Made by a program: the position numbers and the translations under genes
In this document: one piece after another, positions 1 to 32,016 of the stretch
How positions within the stretch are numbered: position 1 is the first letter of the stretch
How the letters are laid out: every line of letters starts with the position of its first letter
Notes under the pieces: generated by a model
Database searches by the model: none
Told to the model about the DNA's origin: nothing
Seen by the model: only the letters and a program-made list of their open reading frames with translations
DNA from: Verrucomicrobiota bacterium
GTDB lineage: Bacteria > Verrucomicrobiota > Verrucomicrobiia > CAIQCK01
Length of the DNA: 64,000 bases
Assembly: GCA_016219905.1 (NCBI GenBank)
Contig: JACRKA010000351.1
Span: forward strand, 2,622-66,621
Direction of reading: 5' to 3'

Positions 1-1633
1 CTGCCACGCGCTCAGCGGCGATTCGCACGTGGCGCAGCATGACGCGGCGGACGATCCGGGTTGGTGGGACGCGGTGGTGGGGCCGGGCAAGGCGATGGAT
101 ACGGACAAGTATTTCGTCGTCTGCCCGAACATGCTCGGCGGCTGCCGTGGCACCACCGGGCCGAACTCGACCAATCCGGCCACCGGCAAGCCGTATGGCG
201 CGGATTTCCCGAACATCACCACCGGCGACATCGTGGACGTGCAGCGGCGGCTGGCGGACCATCTTGGCATTGAGCAATGGCTCGCGATCGCCGGCGGCTC
301 GATGGGCGGCCACCAATCGCTGGTCTGGGCGACGCGTTACCCGGAGCGTGTGCGCGGGGCGATCCCACTGGCGACCTCGCCGCGGCTGACGTCGCAGGCG
401 CTGGCGTTCGACGTGGTCGGGCGCAACGCCATTTTCCGCGACCCGCACTATCACGGCGGGCAGTATTACGACAAGAGCTGCGGCCCGCACGTCGGCCTGG
501 CGCTCGCGCGGATGCTGGGCCACATCACCTATCTTTCGCCGCAGGCGATGCAGGAGAAGTTCGCTGCCACGAAACTTCGTCCGCGCGACGTGGCCACGGA
601 GTTCGAGAAGAAGTTCTCGGTCGGCTCCTATCTCGCCTACCAAGGGGACAAGTTTGTGGAGCGGTTCGACGCGAATAGCTACATCACGCTCTCGATGGCG
701 ATGGACCTGTTCGACCTCGGCGCGACGCCGGGCGAGCTGGCCGACCGGCTCGCCAAGAGCCAGTGCCGCTGGCTGATCATCAGCTTCACGAGCGACTGGT
801 TGTTTCCGCCGGAACACGCGCGCGAGATCGTGGACACACTGATCGCGCTGGGCCGGCCGGTGAGCTACTGCAACGTCCGCAGCGACTGCGGCCACGACGC
901 GTTCCTGCTGGAGGACGAACTGCCGATCTACGGCGGCATGATCAGCGGGTTCCTGGAGAACCTGCGCGGTGAAGGCCCGGCAACACAGGTGCCGGCCGAA
1001 CTGGACGGACTGGACCGTTACCGGCCCCAGAGCATCTTCAGCACGCGCCGGCTCGACCACGACCGCATCGTGGAGCTGATCCCGCCGCAGGCGAGCGTGC
1101 TGGACATCGGATGCGGCGGCGGCCCGGTGTTGAGCCGGCTGCGGCAAACGAGCCGCGCGCGGCTGATGGGTTTGGAACTGGACGAGCAGGCGCTGCTGGC
1201 GTGTGTGCGGCGCGGGCTGGACGTGGTGCAGGTGGACGTGAACAAGGGGCTGCGGATTTTCGCCGACGGCCAGTTCGACGTGGTGGTGCTCTCGCTGACG
1301 TTGCAGAGCATCCGCAACGTCGAGCGCGTCATCGCCGACATGCTGCGCGTGGGCCGCAAGGCCATCGTGAGTTTCCCGAACTTCGGCTACCACAAGCTGC
1401 GCGCGACGCTGGCCAACGAAGGGCGCGCTCCGGAGCCGTTCAACTGGATGGGCTTCCGCTGGTATAACACGCCGGCGATCCGCTTCCTGACCATCGCGGA
1501 CTTCGAGGAGTTCTGCCGGGAGCGGAACTTCATGGTTCACCAGCGCGTGGCGTTGAACACCGAGGAAGGCCGCGAGGTCGCCGACGACGCCAACCGCCAT
1601 GCTGACATGGCGATCTTCGTGCTCAGCCTGTAG
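1..1633 (+). CDS. metX: Homoserine O-acetyltransferase (MetX) fused in one frame to the methionine biosynthesis protein MetW (methyltransferase-like). The 5' end is truncated by the window edge.
   Basis: The frame is open from nt 2. The N-terminal half has the alpha/beta-hydrolase MetX signature (GGSMGGHQSLVWA; DHPGWWD upstream of the annotated Met). The C-terminal roughly 200 aa has the MetW-type SAM-methyltransferase glycine motif (VLDIGCGGGPVLSRL). There is no stop between the two domains. Confidence 0.85.
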   Translation, partial: CHALSGDSHVAQHDAADDPGWWDAVVGPGKAMDTDKYFVVCPNMLGGCRGTTGPNSTNPATGKPYGADFPNITTGDIVDVQRRLADHLGIEQWLAIAGGSMGGHQSLVWATRYPERVRGAIPLATSPRLTSQALAFDVVGRNAIFRDPHYHGGQYYDKSCGPHVGLALARMLGHITYLSPQAMQEKFAATKLRPRDVATEFEKKFSVGSYLAYQGDKFVERFDANSYITLSMAMDLFDLGATPGELADRLAKSQCRWLIISFTSDWLFPPEHAREIVDTLIALGRPVSYCNVRSDCGHDAFLLEDELPIYGGMISGFLENLRGEGPATQVPAELDGLDRYRPQSIFSTRRLDHDRIVELIPPQASVLDIGCGGGPVLSRLRQTSRARLMGLELDEQALLACVRRGLDVVQVDVNKGLRIFADGQFDVVVLSLTLQSIRNVERVIADMLRVGRKAIVSFPNFGYHKLRATLANEGRAPEPFNWMGFRWYNTPAIRFLTIADFEEFCRERNFMVHQRVALNTEEGREVADDANRHADMAIFVLSL

Positions 1634-1696
1634 CGGGAGCCGGGAGGCTGCCGATGGCGCGGCGTTCGATGAATGGCGGAACGCTCACGCGTTCCG

Positions 1697-3754
1697 CTAC
1701 CGTCGCTCGCCCCGCGCCGGTGGCGACGCTTCTTCGGGCCATCGTTTGCGGTCGGCGACCAGCACCATGTTCACGCCTTCGAGGCGCGTGCCTTCCTTGA
1801 GCGGGAAGTCCTTCGGGAAGTTCAGGAACCGGATGATGGGCGACCAGTCCACCCATTCGCCCAGCATGACCTCCGAGAGGAAGCGGCGGTTGAGGGTGAT
1901 CGGCGTGAGCATGAACGCCGAGATGTGCTGGTAAAGGTCGTTGATCTTGTAGAACTCCTCCGGTTTCTCCGTGATCCAGATGCAACGGCGGTCGCCATAC
2001 CACGCCACGGCCCACGGCTGGTCGCTGACCATGAACTCGGTCGGCGTCAGGTAGCCGGCGGCTTGCGCGATCTTCGGCGGGTAGTAGGGCGGATACGCAT
2101 ACTTGTCGGGCGCAGGCCCAAACAGCCGCATCATCAGCGGCAGCGCCGCCAGCAGGACCACCACCACGATCACGCACGTGCGCCAGAGGGCCGCGTGGAG
2201 TTGCAGCCGATCCAGCAGCACGAAGAACATCGCCGTGCCATACATCGTCACCAGCGGGGCGAGCAGCACCAGGAGGTTGCCCGCCTGCGCCAGCGAGCCG
2301 TCGGGCCGCGCGTCCATGCCCGCCACGCACGTCACGATGAACAACACCACGCCGGACCAGAACATGGCCCATTTGAAGCGGTTGACCTGCAGGCGGCGGA
2401 ACTTGTAGAGCAGCGCCGTCACGCACAACGCCGCCGCCAGCGTCGAGCCGAACACCCAGCCGCCGTCGGCGCACAACGATTGGGCGTTGGCAGCGGCCTT
2501 GTGCCAGAGGTGTCTCATGGCCACGGCATTCAGGTTCGGCGACAACTGCCGCTCCAGCGTGTCGCCGCGCAGCGGGCTGGTCTGCAATTGATAAGTGTAT
2601 TGCGCCGTGCCGAGCAGATTGCTGTTGACCCAGACGTTGCGCAGGATCCACGGCGAGACCACCGCCAGGAACACGACGGCCATGCCCAACGCCATCCATC
2701 GGCCGCGCGACCAGCCCCACATCCGCCAGCCGAGGATGCACAGCGGCAACAGCAGCCAACCGGCGGCGTATTTCGTCAGGAACGCCAGCGCCACGAAGAA
2801 AGCCGCCAGCAAGCCCAGCAACACCGCCACGACCGGCCGCCGCTCCTGCACCCGCAAATCCTGCGCCACCACCAGACACTGCCACATCAGCCCCGCCCAC
2901 AACATCAGCAGCATCACGTTGAGGCCGGAGATCGCATACTGGCAGATCGTGTCCGACAACACGAACAAGCACGCCGCCATCACCCCCACGCCGCGGTCGA
3001 ACAACCGCCGCGCGATCAGATACGTCAGCCAGCCGTTGGCCAGCGTCAACGGCACGCCCAGCCCATACACAATCCACATGTCCGGGCCGTAAACCGTGAA
3101 CGCCTCCAACGGCCCGACCTCAAACGCCGTCTTCGGCGTCCACGACAGGCCGAAGAGAACCAGACAGACCGCAATACCCGTCCCGTGCCAGGCCACCTCG
3201 CCGCGTTTGAGCCGCAACCGCCACGCCCGGCTCACCAACCACGAAACCCACGCCAGCACGCCACCGCCCCACACCCACTTCCACAGGCCCCACGATACGA
3301 CCCGCTTCACCACCTGGCTGGTCGTCACCGGCGCGTCCGGTTTCGGCGGCGACGCGTCCGGCGCCGCCATGTCGCCCTTCTGCACCAGATACAACAGTCC
3401 GCCGACCAGCGCCGGATACAACGGCGGATTCGCCAGGTCCGGATGGTTCTTCAACATCGGGTCGCGCCACCGGCTGCGCTCATTGAGCCGCCAGATGCTC
3501 ATCGGCCGGATGAACCGCGTCGTGTAGCCCTCGCCCCGCACCAGGTTGCGCCCCAACTGCGCCTGGTCCATCGCCTCGCGCTGGTTCAGGCCGCGGAACT
3601 GGCTGCCGCCCATGTTCACGCCCATCAATGCCAGGTTGCCCGCATAAAACAACAGCAGCGCCCCGGCACAGACCGTCAACAGCAACGCGCGCAGCCCGCG
3701 CTGCCCGACCCCGATGTCGAAAAAATGCACCGTGTCCTGGATCGTGGCGGTCAC
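1697..3754 (-). CDS. GT-C family membrane glycosyltransferase (ArnT/PMT-like, GT83/GT39 type). The start is uncertain: GTG at about 3754 or 3730, or ATG at 3625.
   Basis: More than 10 predicted TM helices. The N-terminal periplasmic loop resembles the ArnT/PMT DE..Y..R and FEKPPL region (MDQAQLGRNLVRGEGYTT; HPDLANPPLYPAL). The ORF-track N-terminus upstream of about 3808 overlaps the response regulator gene, so the real start must be downstream of the regulator stop. Confidence 0.6.
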   Translation of the reverse strand: MTATIQDTVHFFDIGVGQRGLRALLLTVCAGALLLFYAGNLALMGVNMGGSQFRGLNQREAMDQAQLGRNLVRGEGYTTRFIRPMSIWRLNERSRWRDPMLKNHPDLANPPLYPALVGGLLYLVQKGDMAAPDASPPKPDAPVTTSQVVKRVVSWGLWKWVWGGGVLAWVSWLVSRAWRLRLKRGEVAWHGTGIAVCLVLFGLSWTPKTAFEVGPLEAFTVYGPDMWIVYGLGVPLTLANGWLTYLIARRLFDRGVGVMAACLFVLSDTICQYAISGLNVMLLMLWAGLMWQCLVVAQDLRVQERRPVVAVLLGLLAAFFVALAFLTKYAAGWLLLPLCILGWRMWGWSRGRWMALGMAVVFLAVVSPWILRNVWVNSNLLGTAQYTYQLQTSPLRGDTLERQLSPNLNAVAMRHLWHKAAANAQSLCADGGWVFGSTLAAALCVTALLYKFRRLQVNRFKWAMFWSGVVLFIVTCVAGMDARPDGSLAQAGNLLVLLAPLVTMYGTAMFFVLLDRLQLHAALWRTCVIVVVVLLAALPLMMRLFGPAPDKYAYPPYYPPKIAQAAGYLTPTEFMVSDQPWAVAWYGDRRCIWITEKPEEFYKINDLYQHISAFMLTPITLNRRFLSEVMLGEWVDWSPIIRFLNFPKDFPLKEGTRLEGVNMVLVADRKRWPEEASPPARGERR

Positions 3755-3807
3755 CGACTGCGGCGTCGGGGGTCGCGGTTCCAAAGGAGGAGGTTCAGCG
3801 GGAGTGC

Positions 3808-5205
3808 TCACAGGTCTTCGAGGTTGAATTCGTGGATCTTGCGGTGCAGCGTGCGCCGGCTCACGCCGAGCCGTTTGGCCGCCTCGGTGCGGTTGCCCTC
3901 GCAAGCCCTGAGCGCGTTGATGAACATCTGCCGCTCCACTTCGTGCAAGGGCAGCACGCCCTTTGCGATCTGCTCCGGCGACAGCATGCCTTGCTCGCGC
4001 GCCGCCTCCGTGCCGGCCCGCACCGCCGGCGGCAGGTCCTTCAGCGTGATCTTGTCGCCGCGCGCCAGCACCACCGCGCGCTCGATGGCCGTGCGCAACT
4101 CGCGCACGTTGCCGGGCCACTGGTAAAACAACAGCGCGTTCATCGCCTCCGGCGTGATCTCCGTGATCGGCTTGTTGTTCTCCCGCGCGAACTCCGTCAG
4201 GCACGCCTTCGCCAGCAGCACCACGTCGTCGCCCCGCTCGCGCAGCGGCGGCATCGTCACCGTCACCACCTGCAAACGGTAGAACAAATCGTCGCGGAAC
4301 TTCCCCGCCTTCACCAGCTCGTCGAGGTTCTTGTTCGTCGCGGCCACCAGCCGCACGTCCACGTCGAGGGTCTTGTTCCCGCCGACGCGCTCGAATTGCC
4401 GTTCGCCGAGCACCCGCAGGATCTTCACCTGCACCGACGGGTCAATCTCGCCGATCTCGTCCAAGAAGATCGTGCCGCCGTCGGCCTCCTCGAACCGCCC
4501 GATCCGCCGCTCCAGCGCGCCGGTGAACGCGCCCTTCTCGTGGCCGAACAGCTCGCTCTCCAGCAGGCTCAGCGACAGCGCCGCGCAGTGGACCGCGACG
4601 AAGCGGCTGGCGCGGCGCGGGCTGAGCTGGTGGACGGCGTGCGCCACCAGTTCCTTGCCGGTGCCGCTCTCGCCCTGGATCAACACCGTCGCCCGCGTCG
4701 GCGCCACCTGACGCACCGTGTCGAGCACCTCCACCATCGGCGCCGACTGGCCGATGATGTTCTCCAGGCCGAACCGTTTGTCGAGTTGCTGCCGCAGCGC
4801 GACGTTTTCACTTTCGAGCCGCCGGCTCTTCAGCGCGCGGGCCAGCACCAACTCCAGCCGTTCCAGGTCCACCGGCTTGGTCAGGTAATCGTAAGCGCCG
4901 CGACGCATCGCCTCCACCGCGTTCTCCACCGTGCCGTAGGCCGTCATCATGATGCACAACGGCGGGCGCGGCAGTGCCTGCGCGCGCTGGATCAACTGCA
5001 ACCCGTCCATGCCCGGCATCCGCAGGTCCGCCAGCACGACATCGAAGCTCTCCGTCTCCAGCAGCCGCATCGCCGTCGCGCCGTCCTCCGCCAGCGTCAC
5101 GGCGTAGTCGCCATCGAGCGCGCGGCTCAATCCCTCGCGCGTGTGGCGTTCGTCGTCCACGACCAGCACGGGCGGCAGCGGGGGTTTGGCAACGGGGGCG
5201 CTCAT
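3808..5205 (-). CDS. Sigma-54-dependent response regulator (NtrC family): receiver domain, AAA+ sigma54-interaction domain and Fis-type HTH.
   Basis: Receiver aspartate region (VLADLRMPGMDG). Walker A GESGTGKE. ESELFGHEKGAFTGA (GAFTGA motif). C-terminal HTH (AAKRLGVSRRTLHRK). Confidence 0.93.
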   Translation of the reverse strand: MSAPVAKPPLPPVLVVDDERHTREGLSRALDGDYAVTLAEDGATAMRLLETESFDVVLADLRMPGMDGLQLIQRAQALPRPPLCIMMTAYGTVENAVEAMRRGAYDYLTKPVDLERLELVLARALKSRRLESENVALRQQLDKRFGLENIIGQSAPMVEVLDTVRQVAPTRATVLIQGESGTGKELVAHAVHQLSPRRASRFVAVHCAALSLSLLESELFGHEKGAFTGALERRIGRFEEADGGTIFLDEIGEIDPSVQVKILRVLGERQFERVGGNKTLDVDVRLVAATNKNLDELVKAGKFRDDLFYRLQVVTVTMPPLRERGDDVVLLAKACLTEFARENNKPITEITPEAMNALLFYQWPGNVRELRTAIERAVVLARGDKITLKDLPPAVRAGTEAAREQGMLSPEQIAKGVLPLHEVERQMFINALRACEGNRTEAAKRLGVSRRTLHRKIHEFNLEDL

Positions 5206-5206
5206 G

Positions 5207-6388
5207 TCAATTGCGCGCGGCCAGCTCCAGCCGCCGTGACGGGGCTTGCGCCGCCTCCAGCACGCGCACGCGCTTCTCTCGAACCGGAAGCCGCACGCGG
5301 AAGACGGTCCCCTTGCCCACCGCGCTGTCCACGTCCAACGCGCCGCCGTGTTCCTGCACGATGCGGCGGACGATCATCAGGCCCAGACCGGAACCGTCCG
5401 GCTTGGTGCTGCGATAGGGGTCGAAGATCCGCCCGATCTGGTCCGGCGGAATCCCCGCGCCCGTGTCCGCGACGCTGATGACGACATGGTTGCCGGCCGC
5501 CTCGGTGGCCACGGTGAGCTTGCCGCCGCGCGGCATCGCTTCGAGGGCGTTCTTGATGAGGTTGAAGAACACCTGCTTCATCTGGTCGTGGTCGAGCCAG
5601 ACGCGCGGCAGGCCGCGGGCCAGCTCCGCCTCCACCGCGACGCCGGCGTTGGCGATCTCGCCGCTCATGAACTCCAGCGTCTCCCCGACCACGGCGTTGA
5701 CCGGCTGCAGCTCCATGTGCACCGGCGTCGGCCGGACCGCCTCCAGGAACTGCGTGATGATCTTGTCGAGCCGCGCCACCTCGGCCTTGGCGACGCGGAG
5801 CGACTCCTGCGTCGAGGCGCGCGGGGCCTCCGGCAGCCGGCGCAGTTCGCGCTCCAGCAGTTGGAGGTGGATGTGGAGCGAGTTGAGCGGGTTGCCGATC
5901 TCGTGCGCGACGCCCGCCGCCAGCAGCGTCATCGCCTCGACGCGCTTGCTCTCGAGGGTCTCGGCGGCCTGTTTGCGCGATTCGGTCACGTCGCGCAGGA
6001 TGAGCACCGCGCCCGCCCCGCCGCCGCCGGCCAGCGGCACGGCGTAGAGGTGCAGGTAACGCTGCCGCGGATAGAAGACCTCCAGTTCGCGGCTGAACGC
6101 GCGCGGCCGGCTCGCGCCGTCGGCGTCCCATTTCAGGTCCGGCAGGTAGCGGCCCAGCGGCAGCCCGAGCGCCGTGTCGCGCGGCACGCCGAGCAGCTCC
6201 GTGGCGGCCTGGTTGAGGTAGCTGATGCGGCCTTCGTCGTTGGTGACGATGACGCCCTCGTGGAGCGAGTTGAAGACCGCCTCCAGGAACCCGTGCTCCC
6301 GCGCGAGCTGGCTGAAGTAGCCCTGCACGCTCTCCGCGTCGAGCCAGTTGAGCTTGCCGAGCAGCTTCTGGTGGAACTTCTGCTTCAT
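5207..6388 (-). CDS. PAS-domain sensor histidine kinase.
   Basis: PAS region (EGVIVTNDEGRISYLNQAATELLG). H-box HEIGNPLNSL. HATPase_c G-boxes (DTGAGIPPD, GSGLGL). Its stop is 2 nt from the response-regulator start. Confidence 0.9.
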   Translation of the reverse strand: MKQKFHQKLLGKLNWLDAESVQGYFSQLAREHGFLEAVFNSLHEGVIVTNDEGRISYLNQAATELLGVPRDTALGLPLGRYLPDLKWDADGASRPRAFSRELEVFYPRQRYLHLYAVPLAGGGGAGAVLILRDVTESRKQAAETLESKRVEAMTLLAAGVAHEIGNPLNSLHIHLQLLERELRRLPEAPRASTQESLRVAKAEVARLDKIITQFLEAVRPTPVHMELQPVNAVVGETLEFMSGEIANAGVAVEAELARGLPRVWLDHDQMKQVFFNLIKNALEAMPRGGKLTVATEAAGNHVVISVADTGAGIPPDQIGRIFDPYRSTKPDGSGLGLMIVRRIVQEHGGALDVDSAVGKGTVFRVRLPVREKRVRVLEAAQAPSRRLELAARN

Positions 6389-6389
6389 C

Positions 6390-7373
6390 CTAGAACCAGT
6401 TCTTGCGCTTGAGCCAGATCAGCAAGCCGAACGTCGTGCCCAACATCAGCAGCCACGCCCACAGATAGCCGTAGGCCCACTGGAATTCCGGAATCTTCAG
6501 GTTCATCCCGTAGATGGAAGCGATGACCAGCGGCGGCAACGAGATGGCGTTGAGGATCGTCAGCACCTTGACCACCTCGTTGGTCTGGTTGGCGGAATGG
6601 CTGAGATAGACCTGCAACGTGTTGGTCAGATGATCGGTGTAAGCGTCCGTCGTGTAACCGATGCGGACCAGCGCGTCATGCACGTCGCGGAAATACGGCA
6701 ACAGGTGCGCGCGGATGATCTTGAACTCCCCGCGCGCCAGCCGGCCGATGACCTCGCGTTGCGGGCCGACGGTCTGCCGGAACAGCGTCACCTGCCTCCG
6801 GATCGCCTGGATGTGGTTCAACGTCGCCCGCGTCGGCTGGCTGAACACCTGGTCCTGCAACGCCGCGATCTGCCCCGCCAGCGCGTCCACCGCCGGCTGA
6901 TAGCTCTCCACCAGGAAATCCACGATCGTGTGCAGCAGCCGGTCCGCCCCGCGCGGCCCGGTCTTCACGCAACGATCAAACGCCTGCGCGATCGCCTTCA
7001 TCGGCTGCTCGTGCCACGTCACCAGGAAGTTCTTGCCGATGAACGCATCCAACTCCGGCGTCTGCACCGTCTCGTCCTGCGGCGAATACTCCACGCCATG
7101 CACCACCAGGAACGTGCAGACCCGCCACGGTTCCACGTCCTCATAAGGCTCGATCTTCGGCGTGCTGATCGCCTCATGGCAGTCATTGATCGCCAGCGGA
7201 TGGAAGTTGAACAGGTTTTCGCCGAGGACATTGTGCGCCTCCTCCTCGGTGGCGTTCTCGAGGTCCACCCAGATCAACTTGTGGTTCTCGGCAAGATAAG
7301 TGCGCAACTGGTCCAGCGAGGCATCGCGCCCGATGAACTTTCCCTGATCGTCGAAGATTAAGCTATGGACCAT
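6390..7373 (-). CDS. corA: CorA family magnesium/cobalt transporter.
   Basis: C-terminal two TM helices with the YGMNLK signature (GMN motif), and a typical CorA cytoplasmic domain. The stop lies 2 nt upstream of the histidine kinase start. Confidence 0.9.
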   Translation of the reverse strand: MVHSLIFDDQGKFIGRDASLDQLRTYLAENHKLIWVDLENATEEEAHNVLGENLFNFHPLAINDCHEAISTPKIEPYEDVEPWRVCTFLVVHGVEYSPQDETVQTPELDAFIGKNFLVTWHEQPMKAIAQAFDRCVKTGPRGADRLLHTIVDFLVESYQPAVDALAGQIAALQDQVFSQPTRATLNHIQAIRRQVTLFRQTVGPQREVIGRLARGEFKIIRAHLLPYFRDVHDALVRIGYTTDAYTDHLTNTLQVYLSHSANQTNEVVKVLTILNAISLPPLVIASIYGMNLKIPEFQWAYGYLWAWLLMLGTTFGLLIWLKRKNWF

Positions 7374-7618
7374 AGGAACAACTCGTCACACCGCCCGTCG
7401 CGCACCACCGCCGGCTGCCCTGTGGCAAACCTGCACACACCCAGCCACGCACCACCCGCAACGGAAAAAACGCGGATTTTGCCACGCGCAGATTAGCACA
7501 CTCCACTCGCCGCCAGCAAGCGCGGTTTCAGCGGCTCACAGAATGCAAGTCGTCCGGCAGGCAGGCCCATCACTCGCCCGCCTCACCGCTCCGCCGCTCA
7601 ACCATTCCCTCGTTTCAA

Positions 7619-9259
7619 TCACTCCATCGCCTTCAACAGGTCGTCCTTCGGCATGCGCAGGACGAAGGACTGGAAGCTCTCGCCGGCGTTGCGCCGGGCC
7701 TGATACACATCGAGCAGCTTCGTGATGGCAGCCGGCAGGGCGTTCGCGGGGATTTTTCCTTTCAGCAGCTTGTTGAACGCGCGGTTCCTGCCAAGCTGGT
7801 CGCCGGTGAAGAGGTCGAACGCCTCGACCTGTTTGCCGTCCACGCGCGTCAGCGCGCCGCGCAGGCCGATGTCGGCGATCCAGCTCTGGCCGCAGTTGTT
7901 CGGGCAGCCGCTGAAATGGATGCGGATCTTGTCGCTGTAGCCGGGCCGCGCCTTTTCCAGTTGCTCGACGAGCCACATGGCGCGGTTCTTGGTCTCGGCG
8001 ACGGCGAGTTTGCAGAACTCGATGCCGGTGCACGACACGCAGCCGCGGCGGAAGCTCGACGCCTCCCAGACCAGCCCGCGCGCGGTCAGTTCTTTCAGCA
8101 GCGCATCGAGGCTGGCCTTTGGGATGTTCGGGATGAGGATGTTTTGCTTGTTGGTGTTGCGGATCTCTCCGCTGCCGAACTTTTCCGACAGCTCCGTGAT
8201 GGCCAGCAGATGCCCGGTCGAAATCCGGCCGCCGAGGCACGAGATGCCGACGTAGTAAAGGCCGGCTTGTTTCTGCTCGTGGACGCCGAAGTGGTCGCTC
8301 TCCGGGTCCTCCGGCTCGTCGTAGTCCGCGGCGCTGAACGGCTCCAGCTTGCGGCCCAGGCGCTTCTCCAACTCGGCGGCGAACCGTTCCGCGCCCCAAT
8401 CCGCCACCAGGAACTTCAAGCGCGCCACGCGCCGGCCGGCGTCGCGGTAGCCTTCGTCGCGGTAGAGGGCGGCGATGTGGTGGACGACCTCGATCAATTC
8501 TGATTTCACCGGCGGGATGAAGACCGGCAGCAGTTGGGCCATGTGCGGCGCGGTGGAGAGGCCGCCGCCGACCTTGATGCCGAAGCCGGCCTGGCCGTTG
8601 CTCTTGCGCCGGAGGGCGAAGATGCCGACGCAGTTGATGTCGGGCTGGGCGCAATGGATATGGCAGCCGCTGACGGAGAACTTGAACTTGCGCGGCAGGT
8701 TGGAGAACTCGCGGTTGTGCGTGAGATGGTCGTCAACGGCGCGGGTGAACCCGGTGGCGTCGAGGATTTCGTCGCGGTCCAGGCCGGCCGCGGGGCAGCC
8801 GACGACGTTGCGGGTGATGTCGCCGCATGCGCCGGAGGTGGTCATGCCGACGGAGGCCAGCCGGGCGAAGATGTCCGGGAGCTGCTCCACGCGCAGCCAG
8901 TGCATCTGATAGGTCTGGCGCGTGGTCACATCGAGGAAGCCGCGGCCGTAGTCGTTGGCGATGCCGGCGATGACGCGCGCCTGCGCGGAGGTGACCTGGC
9001 CGGCGGGGACCTTCAGGCGCATCATGAAATAGCCCTCGGACTCGGGCCGCTGGGTGTAAACGCCATACCACTTGAACAGCTTCAGGTCGTCGGGCGTGAT
9101 CGCCTCGAAGCCCATCTTCGCGTAGCGGAAGATGTCGTGGACGATGTCGAGGCCATCCTTGGCGAGCTTGATCTGCTCGAAGGGGTCGGGCTTGACGCCG
9201 CCGACGGCCGCGTTGGCCTTGGCGGCGGCGAAATTGACGTGCGGTTTTGGCTCTGGCAT
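7619..9259 (-). CDS. Ferredoxin-dependent sulfite/nitrite reductase (siroheme plus [4Fe-4S]; NirA/Sir family).
   Basis: Two nitrite/sulfite reductase ferredoxin-like half-domains. Cys cluster CVSCTGIEFCKLAVAETK...SGCPNNCGQ, typical of siroheme-[4Fe-4S] coupling. Confidence 0.85.
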   Translation of the reverse strand: MPEPKPHVNFAAAKANAAVGGVKPDPFEQIKLAKDGLDIVHDIFRYAKMGFEAITPDDLKLFKWYGVYTQRPESEGYFMMRLKVPAGQVTSAQARVIAGIANDYGRGFLDVTTRQTYQMHWLRVEQLPDIFARLASVGMTTSGACGDITRNVVGCPAAGLDRDEILDATGFTRAVDDHLTHNREFSNLPRKFKFSVSGCHIHCAQPDINCVGIFALRRKSNGQAGFGIKVGGGLSTAPHMAQLLPVFIPPVKSELIEVVHHIAALYRDEGYRDAGRRVARLKFLVADWGAERFAAELEKRLGRKLEPFSAADYDEPEDPESDHFGVHEQKQAGLYYVGISCLGGRISTGHLLAITELSEKFGSGEIRNTNKQNILIPNIPKASLDALLKELTARGLVWEASSFRRGCVSCTGIEFCKLAVAETKNRAMWLVEQLEKARPGYSDKIRIHFSGCPNNCGQSWIADIGLRGALTRVDGKQVEAFDLFTGDQLGRNRAFNKLLKGKIPANALPAAITKLLDVYQARRNAGESFQSFVLRMPKDDLLKAME

Positions 9260-31569: not shown

Positions 31570-32016
31570 TCATTCCGACACGCGTTTGATGATCGCCAGC
31601 CATAATGAATCCACCGACCGCACCAGCTTGATCATCTGATTCAAATCAATCGGTTTGCTCAAGTAAGCATCGGCGTTGAGATCGTAAGCTTGCAGGATGT
31701 CCTCTTCCGCCTTCGACCCGGTCAGCACCACCACCGGGATGCGCTTCAGCACGGGGTCTTTCCTCATCTCGATCAACACCTCGCGCCCGTCCTTGCGGGG
31801 CAGGTTCAAATCAAGCATCACCAAGTCCGGCTCCCGCGCTGCCGCATACTTGCCCTCGCGCCGCAGGCAGGCCATCGCCTCGATTCCATCACCCACCACG
31901 GTGAGGCTGTTGTGCAGTTTGGCCTCGCGGAACATCTCTTGCACCAGCCGCGCGTCGCCCGCGCTGTCCTCAACCAATAGAATCTCTATCGGCTTGATCG
32001 CTTTCTTGTCACTCAT
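31570..32016 (-). CDS. Single-domain response regulator receiver protein (CheY-like).
   Basis: Start taken at MSDKKAIKPIEILLVEDS. Phospho-acceptor context VMLDLNLP and conserved LTGSKAEED / K-P region. Confidence 0.8.
   Translation of the reverse strand: MSDKKAIKPIEILLVEDSAGDARLVQEMFREAKLHNSLTVVGDGIEAMACLRREGKYAAAREPDLVMLDLNLPRKDGREVLIEMRKDPVLKRIPVVVLTGSKAEEDILQAYDLNADAYLSKPIDLNQMIKLVRSVDSLWLAIIKRVSE

Follow-up and report, generated by a model that had tools for sequence, protein, structure and literature searches.

A tightly packed kinase–activator–glycosyltransferase cluster, often lacking but sometimes led by corA, recurs across Verrucomicrobiota, Kiritimatiellia and Lentisphaerota and carries a probable operator of its own activator

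Why should genes for a divalent-cation channel, a soluble histidine kinase, an activator of sigma-54 promoters and a membrane glycosyltransferase (GT) be packed end to end on one DNA strand? Such a cluster occupies positions 1697-7373 of what we call the window, the whole 64,000-nt stretch of DNA that was analyzed (66% GC; contig JACRKA010000351.1, positions 2,622 to 66,621, of the Verrucomicrobiota assembly GCA_016219905.1). The original prediction, made from the sequence alone, saw in it a divalent-cation-responsive envelope glycosylation module driven by sigma-54, with a logic resembling the route from PhoPQ/PmrAB to ArnT in enterobacteria. The explanation that in our view best covers the observations, and to which we assign a probability of roughly one half, is a single kinase–activator–GT-C operon that is transcribed from a sigma-70-type promoter and regulates itself, with the GT working alongside a sigma-54 regulon.

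In the open reading frame (ORF) listing, four ORFs on the minus strand span exactly these coordinates. In order of transcription they are corA, encoding a 327-aa Mg2+/Co2+ channel of the CorA family (6390..7373; recognized by Pfam, motif and transmembrane segments); the gene for a 393-aa soluble PAS-HisKA-HATPase_c histidine kinase (5207..6388; Pfam and NCBIfam); that for a 465-aa sigma-54 enhancer-binding response regulator, composed of a receiver domain (REC), an AAA+ domain and HTH_8 (3808..5205; Pfam and NCBIfam); and that for a membrane GT of the GT-C fold, PMT_2 or "GT39-like", with an alpha/beta C-terminal domain of about 130 aa (1697..3811; Pfam, an AlphaFold2 model and Foldseek). The ATG of the kinase gene follows the corA stop after a single nucleotide, and the regulator ATG follows the kinase stop at the same spacing. 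The earliest possible GT start, GTG 3811, overlaps the TGA of the regulator as GTGA and would give a product of 704 aa; the start annotated by NCBI is TTG 3784, 27 nt downstream of GTG 3811, which gives 695 aa (P0001), and the window GT is 100% identical to that NCBI protein. The junctions (1 nt, 1 nt and the GTGA overlap) are therefore slightly tighter than the "2-nt gaps or overlaps" first described, although the tightness itself was correctly seen, as was the overlap between the GT start region and the regulator stop, which is kept in five relatives (L001, L002, L006, L009 and L013; loci are numbered as we fetched them).

To place the cluster among its relatives, we scanned genomes with the GT alignment, taking one genome per GTDB species. 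At least 581 genomes contain a relative, and the best 80 loci were fetched; their neighbors were scored by tblastn with the four window proteins, and the denominators below count the loci with enough flank. Almost all of these best 80 loci come from Verrucomicrobiota, Kiritimatiellia/Pontiellaceae, Lentisphaerota, Chthoniobacter and Limisphaera; statements about taxa reflect the bulk of the record titles and not single ones, and several labels of metagenome-assembled genomes (MAGs) look doubtful ("Methylacidiphilum sp.", "Candidatus Methylomirabilota" and the lake-derived "Akkermansia muciniphila" MAGs, among L007/L011, L032, L045 and L080). In 53 of 77 loci, distributed over Verrucomicrobiota, Kiritimatiellia and Lentisphaerota, the gene immediately before the GT is that of the regulator, and in 44 of 67 both kinase and regulator precede the GT. 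Regulator identity stays at 54-66% even where GT identity is down to about 30%. From the regulator stop to the codon for the conserved F72 of the GT, the median distance is 154 nt (56 loci); the gap between the two genes runs from -4 to +12 nt in Verrucomicrobiota and from about 55 to 120 nt in Kiritimatiellia and Lentisphaerota. Independent gene calls combined with Pfam gave the matching arrangement in L001, L002, L006 and L088, with corA in the latter two, and in L088, where GT identity is 32%, the order is CorA, PAS kinase, activator and PMT_2 protein with junctions of +3, -4 and +6. Because an identical order with tight junctions recurs in dozens of distantly related genomes, the four genes form a genuine tight unit that goes beyond chance. 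The ORF listing and the recurrence in relatives thus agree on this part of the original prediction.

The GT also occurs outside the cluster. In the GT tree, lone GTs form lineage-specific clades that are sister to linked clades of the same taxa, both in the window's group and in Pontiellaceae, and one MAG (DYDC01) holds a linked copy (L007) together with an unlinked one (L011). For these two reasons the trees indicate that the unlinked GTs are paralogs and that linkage is the older state, and the best explanation for the distribution is that the kinase–regulator–GT core was ancestral to Verrucomicrobiota, Kiritimatiellia and Lentisphaerota. One type of lone paralog (45-48% identity, with the same insertion as the window GT, described below) adjoins a divergent rhomboid–major facilitator superfamily pair in L003-L005, L010-L012 and L024. 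In L087 (3823-6071), on a 926-kb contig, two tandem GT4 genes are followed, some 0.9 kb further downstream, by a lone GT-C gene whose product is 28% identical to ours, a neighborhood that hints at a glycan-assembly context for that paralog.

The position of corA is less constant. It stands directly before the kinase in 12 of 63 loci, besides the window, L006/L007 and the separately fetched L088. The regulator tree groups the corA-linked loci in one large clade and puts the window and L007 in a second, separate one, whose sister lineage (the L001 type) is without corA; either corA was ancestral and repeatedly lost, or it was gained twice at the same position. Judged from this distribution, corA appears as a recurrent first gene and not a chance neighbor, yet as one that is dispensable for the module. 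Its inclusion in the cluster was to that extent justified, but its standing as a core part was not. The idea that corA is merely a recent neighbor, suggested by six loci, was overturned by the genome scan.

What drives transcription of this unit? If, as originally proposed, the module were driven by sigma-54, a -24/-12 promoter would be expected ahead of it. Within the window, TGGCAC-N5-TTGC with at most 1 mismatch has 3 matches where 6.4 would be expected, none of them ahead of a cluster gene. Across about 55 regulator–GT loci, neither the 500 nt ahead of the first gene nor the regulator–GT junction contains a -24/-12 element with at most 1 mismatch, and the exact consensus had 0 occurrences in the 1.2 Mb made up of the loci and the window. 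A TGG-N9-TGC noticed by eye upstream of corA (TGGCTGGGTGTGTGC) was rejected, as it is not conserved in L006, L001 and L002. These searches leave the claim of sigma-54 control over the cluster itself without support. They also bear on the broader reading in which the cluster is a Mg2+ or divalent-cation circuit whose kinase and regulator activate a sigma-54 promoter of an ArnT-like lipid A GT, analogous to PhoPQ/PmrAB and ArnT: in these loci, the promoter that this circuit calls for was found neither upstream of the operon nor upstream of the GT. We come back to this reading as the evidence from the proteins is given.

Comparison of the six closest upstream regions points to a different kind of promoter. 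Two of these regions precede corA (the window and L006) and four precede the kinase gene (L001, L002, L009 and L013). Despite differing upstream genes, TTG and TGnTAnnnT are invariant in all six, and they look like the -35 and extended -10 elements of a sigma-70-like promoter. In the window this putative promoter lies at 7490..7519 on the minus strand, with the -35 TTGCTG (7519..7514), an 18-nt spacer and the extended -10 TGcTAATCT (7498..7490), about 118 nt upstream of the first start codon. The six regions also share three conserved blocks in the leader. One is palindrome-like, TGTGCAGGTTTGCCACA in the window (7421..7437, minus strand) and kept as GTGnGCAGnnnTGCCnCAG in the six loci; the last, GTGTGACGAGTTG, adjoins the start codon of the leading gene, be it corA or the kinase gene. 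Within the block next to the start codon, which is invariant in the six loci, the window has the operator-like 15-mer GTGACGAGTTGTTCC (7375..7389, minus strand), which ends 2 nt before the corA ATG.

That 15-mer is an instance of a motif that extends well beyond the six loci. A de novo expectation-maximization (EM) search of 38 non-redundant 200-nt upstream regions returned the 15-bp palindrome GnGACAAnTTGTCnC with a log-likelihood ratio of 140, compared with about 56 for shuffled sequences; an EM run on GT coding DNA scored a higher ratio, but this is an invalid control since homologous coding DNA is conserved, and the shuffles were used. Counted from the first start codon, the palindrome lies at -35 to -38 (14 loci of Kiritimatiellia, Lentisphaerota and Verrucomicrobiota), at -15 to -20 (the window, L001, L050 and L043) or at -43 to -45 (L026, L045 and L058). 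When 1.12 Mb was scanned with a position weight matrix (PWM) at 13 bits or more, 23 of 33 matches lay no more than 150 nt upstream of a cluster's first gene, a partly circular figure in that 19 of them are training sites. Of DNA-binding proteins, only the activator encoded in the operon, with its Fis-type helix-turn-helix (HTH), accompanies the site, so that the conserved palindrome is probably the operator of that activator. In the 64-kb window, the PWM picked out no additional operator sites or members of a regulon above the level of shuffled sequence. Two other candidates were set aside: a hand-made pattern, TGTGNC-N5-GNCACA, was modestly enriched, with fewer matches in the window than expected by chance, and was replaced by the EM motif, and a site of the CRP/FNR/NtcA type was rejected in view of the odd length of the palindrome (15 bp, centered on a base).

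The same leader could instead be read as a cis-acting RNA, a riboswitch or attenuator that possibly senses metal, with the blocks serving RNA structure rather than a protein. Conservation of the blocks extends as far as the start codon, alifold pairs the fourth block with the one that abuts the start codon, and the 5′ end of the predicted leader carries a terminator-like hairpin, GCGTGG-CAAAAT-CCGCGT followed by TTTTTT (7460..7487, minus strand), directly after the putative -10. An equivalent hairpin with CUUUCUU is present in L006, also a corA-first locus, and corA-less relatives have a different 5′ stem; the hairpin may act as a corA-associated attenuator, or may mean nothing. An RNA element is nonetheless an improbable account of the leader as a whole. 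Rfam gave no match in the leader at E ≤ 1, and the identical palindrome occurs in phylum-level relatives with otherwise unrelated leaders, which fits a DNA-binding protein. Since, in addition, the leader folds with an energy no different from that of its shuffles (z = 0.01) and alifold gives little backing, its covariation term being only -0.53 kcal/mol, the conserved signal favors a DNA site over an RNA element.

Turning to the proteins, Pfam, NCBIfam and sequence motifs bear out the identities first given to the channel, the cytoplasmic PAS kinase and the NtrC-type regulator. CorA matches Pfam CorA (PF01544) with 211 bits (E 2.5e-62) and has the features of a CorA channel, with YGMN at residue 288 and two C-terminal transmembrane segments (266-288 and 303-321); its score against the TIGR00383 equivalog, 200.5, is marginally under the cutoff of 200.75. 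The regulator contains Response_reg, Sigma54_activat (235.7 bits), AAA_lid_14 and HTH_8 domains, with the Walker A motif GESGTGKE at residue 178 and GAFTGA at residue 225, as in NtrC-type enhancer-binding proteins. Its top NCBIfam models are AtoC, ZraR and NtrC, but it falls below every equivalog cutoff (AtoC 503.6 versus 714, ZraR 440 versus 760, NtrC 438.5 versus 558.6). Elsewhere in the window, 31606-32016 (minus strand) encodes a product with weak similarity to its receiver domain (29% over 140 aa, E 5e-5), probably another response regulator, and in L001, which lacks corA, a divergent gene for a 134-aa stand-alone receiver domain (4779-5183) lies upstream of the kinase gene.

The kinase has a PAS domain that begins at residue 34, followed by HisKA, with the H-box HEIGNP at residue 162, and HATPase_c. 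No hydrophobic or transmembrane segment was found in it (maximum hydropathy, KD19, 1.43), and a periplasmic sensor domain of the PhoQ/PmrB type is absent from it. A kinase without a membrane or periplasmic part cannot read external Mg2+ as PhoQ does, and a divalent-cation response of that kind is not supported. The Mg2+ circuit can appeal to corA, which is first in at least two clades and there shares the operator-bearing leader, and to the leader hairpin with its U-run, which is confined to corA-first loci; about 80% of the loci that keep the triad are, however, without corA.

Against Pfam PMT_2 (PF13231), the GT scores 34.6 bits (E 2.7e-8, residues 241-392), above the cutoff of 26.1, and most of its homologs have a precomputed PF13231 match. 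The AlphaFold2 model, built from a 65-sequence alignment, has a pLDDT of 91.8 and a pTM of 0.91, and the top ~30 Foldseek matches in the PDB are all GT-C enzymes (ArnT, AglB, STT3, PglB, ALG9, AftA/B, Pmt4 and PimE). ArnT is the match with the best coverage, with TM-scores of 0.57-0.59 when normalized to the target and 0.45-0.47 when normalized to the query, at 12% identity; the oligosaccharyltransferases (archaeal AglB, eukaryotic STT3 and bacterial PglB) have E-values of 5e-5 to 4e-3, comparable to those of ArnT, and ALG9, AftA/B, Pmt4 and PimE come next. By this model, the GT has the polytopic GT-C(A) fold: its first extracytoplasmic loop is long, and a soluble domain follows at the C terminus.

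In sequence, the relationship is more distant. A hidden Markov model of the GT family found no match among PDB sequences even at E ≤ 10, ArnT included, and NCBIfam gave no match to the GT at E ≤ 0.01. Because no solved protein is matched by sequence, the GT forms a separate family, and it is ArnT- or PMT-like at the superfamily level only. The initial description of an ArnT/PMT-like GT is thus right in that profile and fold place it in the GT-C/PMT_2 superfamily, but does not extend to supported membership of GT83 (ArnT) or GT39 (the true PMTs). Its "GT39" label comes from automated annotation. In the window GT, Pfam finds only PMT_2, with no PMT-type N-terminal domain (PF02366) and no MIR or 4TMC modules, and a precomputed PF02366 match is present in one homolog, P0027. 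At E ≤ 1e-30, the family comprises at least 1,111 representatives of 50%-identity clusters. Genes for an undecaprenyl-phosphate-sugar donor of the arn type (arnA/B/C/D-like) were not found in the window flanks or in annotated related loci. The Mg2+ circuit can point to ArnT as the best full-length structural match, but the missing sequence relation to ArnT or any other solved GT-C, the lack of an NCBIfam match and the absence of donor genes nearby, added to the promoter searches, the soluble kinase and the rarity of corA, make it unlikely.

Is the GT an enzyme at all? Across the family, D82, R88 and R102 are conserved in a first-loop helix, QFRGLxxPEAMDQAQLARNL, as are D125 in HPDLxNPPxYP, D272, and W388, R391 and N392; D82 and D125 are kept in at least 90% of the sequences. 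The motif of the C-terminal domain, YPPY...SDQPWAVAWYGDR, is very strongly kept, and D597-P599-W604 is likewise among the residues conserved across the family. E79, which would be the classical GT-C "DE" position (by an alignment made by eye against the loop-1 motif of E. coli ArnT), varies among E, Q, D, A, R, T and V, and the conserved acid is D82, three residues or one helical turn further on. From the model and the pattern of conservation, we consider the GT likely to be catalytically competent. GTs of the window's clade contain an insertion of ~85 residues after the first loop (residues ~145-235), with two extra, largely hydrophobic helices, which is absent from the family members of 570-600 aa.

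These features have to be weighed against a reading in which the GT-C protein would serve as a membrane input or co-sensor that reports envelope or lipid-linked-sugar status to the soluble kinase, by analogy with the transporter-like co-sensors of other kinases (BceAB-BceS, DctA-DcuS and UhpC-UhpB). Such a role would suit a kinase with no extracytoplasmic sensor of its own and a GT in which the canonical catalytic position is not conserved. The translational coupling of regulator and GT, kept across the superphylum, is also a pattern that suits partners in one pathway better than a regulator and its target, and the existence of paralogs outside the operon would leave the linked copy free to specialize. 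On the other hand, the periplasm-facing residues D82, R88, R102, D125, R391 and N392, in loop 1 and elsewhere, and the C-terminal motif are strongly kept, as one would expect of an enzyme, and fold homology places the conserved C-terminal domain in the periplasm, away from the kinase. On balance we regard a co-sensing GT as doubtful.

An autoregulated operon with a catalytic GT, the explanation that we prefer, would work as follows. Histidine kinases phosphorylate the receiver domain of their partner, and the phosphorylated activator oligomerizes and spends ATP on opening sigma-54 promoters; GT-C enzymes use lipid-phosphate-linked sugar donors at the outer face of the membrane. Here, a single transcript would start from the sigma-70-type promoter ~120 nt upstream of corA, and the operon's own activator would bind the 15-bp palindrome next to the first start codon, giving autoregulation of the kind that NtrC exerts at glnLp. 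The PAS domain of the kinase would read a cytoplasmic cue and the kinase would phosphorylate the regulator, which would switch on sigma-54 promoters elsewhere in the genome. Translational coupling would keep the GT in fixed proportion to the regulator, so that the GT would act beside the regulon rather than as one of its sigma-54 targets. Its fold and conserved loop residues suggest that it most likely takes a sugar from a donor linked to polyprenyl phosphate and transfers it to an envelope acceptor in the periplasm. Where present, corA would be co-controlled, which hints at a link to Mg2+/Co2+ supply.

Several points weigh against this explanation. A generic sigma-70 consensus scan does not call the promoter, whose -35 matches at 3 of 6 positions, and the assignment draws on conservation instead. 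Sigma-54 promoters of the Planctomycetes–Verrucomicrobia–Chlamydiae (PVC) superphylum might deviate from the canonical consensus and so escape our search, and rpoN was not seen in the window or the loci, so that sigma-54 in the host genome is assumed. In the window, the half-site nearest the ATG is degenerate (GTTCC) and the single site scores at chance within the window; some other factor could use the GnGACAAnTTGTCnC site. The role of corA is clouded by its possible double gain or repeated loss. Finally, with the classical "DE" position in loop 1 variable, catalysis would hinge on the shifted conserved D82.

The flanks of the cluster are metabolic. Downstream, and convergent with the GT gene, is a gene for a fusion of MetX (an alpha/beta hydrolase) and MetW (29-1633, plus strand), which adjoins the cluster in L006 too. 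Between the two convergent genes, a perfect 9-bp hairpin, GCGGAACGC-GTGA-GCGTTCCGC (1676..1697, minus strand), begins within the GT stop codon and is probably a bidirectional terminator; a sub-threshold Rfam match to Acido-Lenti-1 RNA covers 1676-1707 (21.3 bits versus a gathering threshold of 37, E 0.31). On the other side, 245 nt upstream of corA and on the same strand, is a gene for a nitrite/sulfite reductase (NIR_SIR; 7619-9259, minus strand). Both flanking genes belong to sulfur or methionine metabolism.

Such a setting might suggest that the kinase and regulator are a general metabolic system, NtrBC- or AtoSC-like and responsive to nitrogen or short-chain acids, with the GT and corA as historical passengers. 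The top NCBIfam models of the pair (AtoS/AtoC, ZraR and NtrC) agree with this, as do the sulfite reductase and MetX-MetW genes here and a glnE a few kb away in L002. Every equivalog cutoff is missed, however, and the adjacency of regulator and GT survives at 30% GT identity over three phyla. Neutral hitch-hiking fails as an explanation because this adjacency persists while the flanks vary, and we hold a purely metabolic regulator with passengers to be quite unlikely.

Our literature search found no description of a translationally coupled kinase–activator–GT-C operon. Each component is well known; what is new in the literature searched is the coupled operon with a conserved candidate operator, from Verrucomicrobiota to Kiritimatiellia and Lentisphaerota. 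The module defines a large uncharacterized GT-C family (the at least 1,111 clusters at 50% identity mentioned above) and offers a testable handle on envelope regulation in a superphylum with almost no worked-out signaling pathway. Cultured carriers exist: the Limisphaera isolates, L043 and L061. Limisphaera sp. VF-2 is one carrier, and locus L030 belongs to a complete genome (CP170459.1).

Among known systems, the PhoPQ/PmrAB-ArnT pathway (arnBCADTEF) is the one to which the cluster was first likened. The two share a two-component system, a GT-C enzyme of the type that uses polyprenyl-phosphate sugars, and, through corA, a Mg2+ theme. The kinase here is, however, a soluble PAS protein that lacks a sensor in the periplasm, the regulator belongs to the NtrC-type sigma-54 activators rather than to the OmpR type, and the GT would share a transcript with its regulators, whereas ArnT is a separately regulated target; here there are also no nearby arn donor genes and no sequence relation to ArnT, and corA is optional. 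The likeness therefore holds for the two-component system and the ArnT-like fold but not for sensor topology, regulator class or promoter type, and our results correct an analogy that is attractive but unsupported.

A sigma-54 two-component system and a GT-C enzyme also share a locus in Pseudomonas aeruginosa strains with group IV pilins, where the PilS-PilR-PilA locus, with PilS a membrane kinase, includes the GT-C pilin arabinosyltransferase TfpW. There, the GT modifies a surface protein and the sigma-54 target pilA lies between regulator and GT, whereas the cluster described here has neither a pilin gene nor a -24/-12 element.

NtrB-NtrC (glnALG) resembles our pair in domain architecture, with a soluble PAS-HisKA-HATPase kinase and an activator of the REC-AAA+-Fis-type HTH form. 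NtrC binds TGCACCA-N3-TGGTGCA and autoregulates at the sigma-70 promoter glnLp. The candidate operator here is likewise an odd-length palindrome of 15-17 bp with inner CA...TG, near the operon's own sigma-70-type promoter, as at glnLp. It differs in its half-site, GTGAC/GGGAC, and the proteins miss the equivalog cutoffs (105 versus 240 bits for NtrB, 438 versus 559 for NtrC); the context has no glnA or PII gene, and the downstream gene encodes a GT-C protein.

The two-gene kinase–activator architecture is also that of chlamydial CtcB-CtcC and of spirochaetal Hk2-Rrp2 (or Hpk2-Rrp2); the Chlamydiae are themselves part of the PVC superphylum. For both of these systems, no GT-C partner has been described. 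In the spirochaetal pair, a PAS domain is part of Hpk2, and Rrp2 has been predicted to act as a sigma-54 activator (PMC12070737). CtcC is closest to E. coli AtoC, also the top model for the window regulator, and its sigma-54 regulon concerns membrane remodeling (PMC7482065). Unlike the regulator here, with its HTH_8, CtcC is without a DNA-binding domain (PMC7482065, PMC3162934). A more far-reaching proposal, which we think unlikely, is that the GT-C protein is the membrane sensory partner in an ancient PVC-wide three-component system through which the state of glycolipids or glycans in the envelope would control a sigma-54 envelope regulon, and that the chlamydial developmental switch CtcB/CtcC would be a reduced descendant of that system without the GT. 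The cluster described here may bear on the input of the related chlamydial CtcBC–sigma-54 system.

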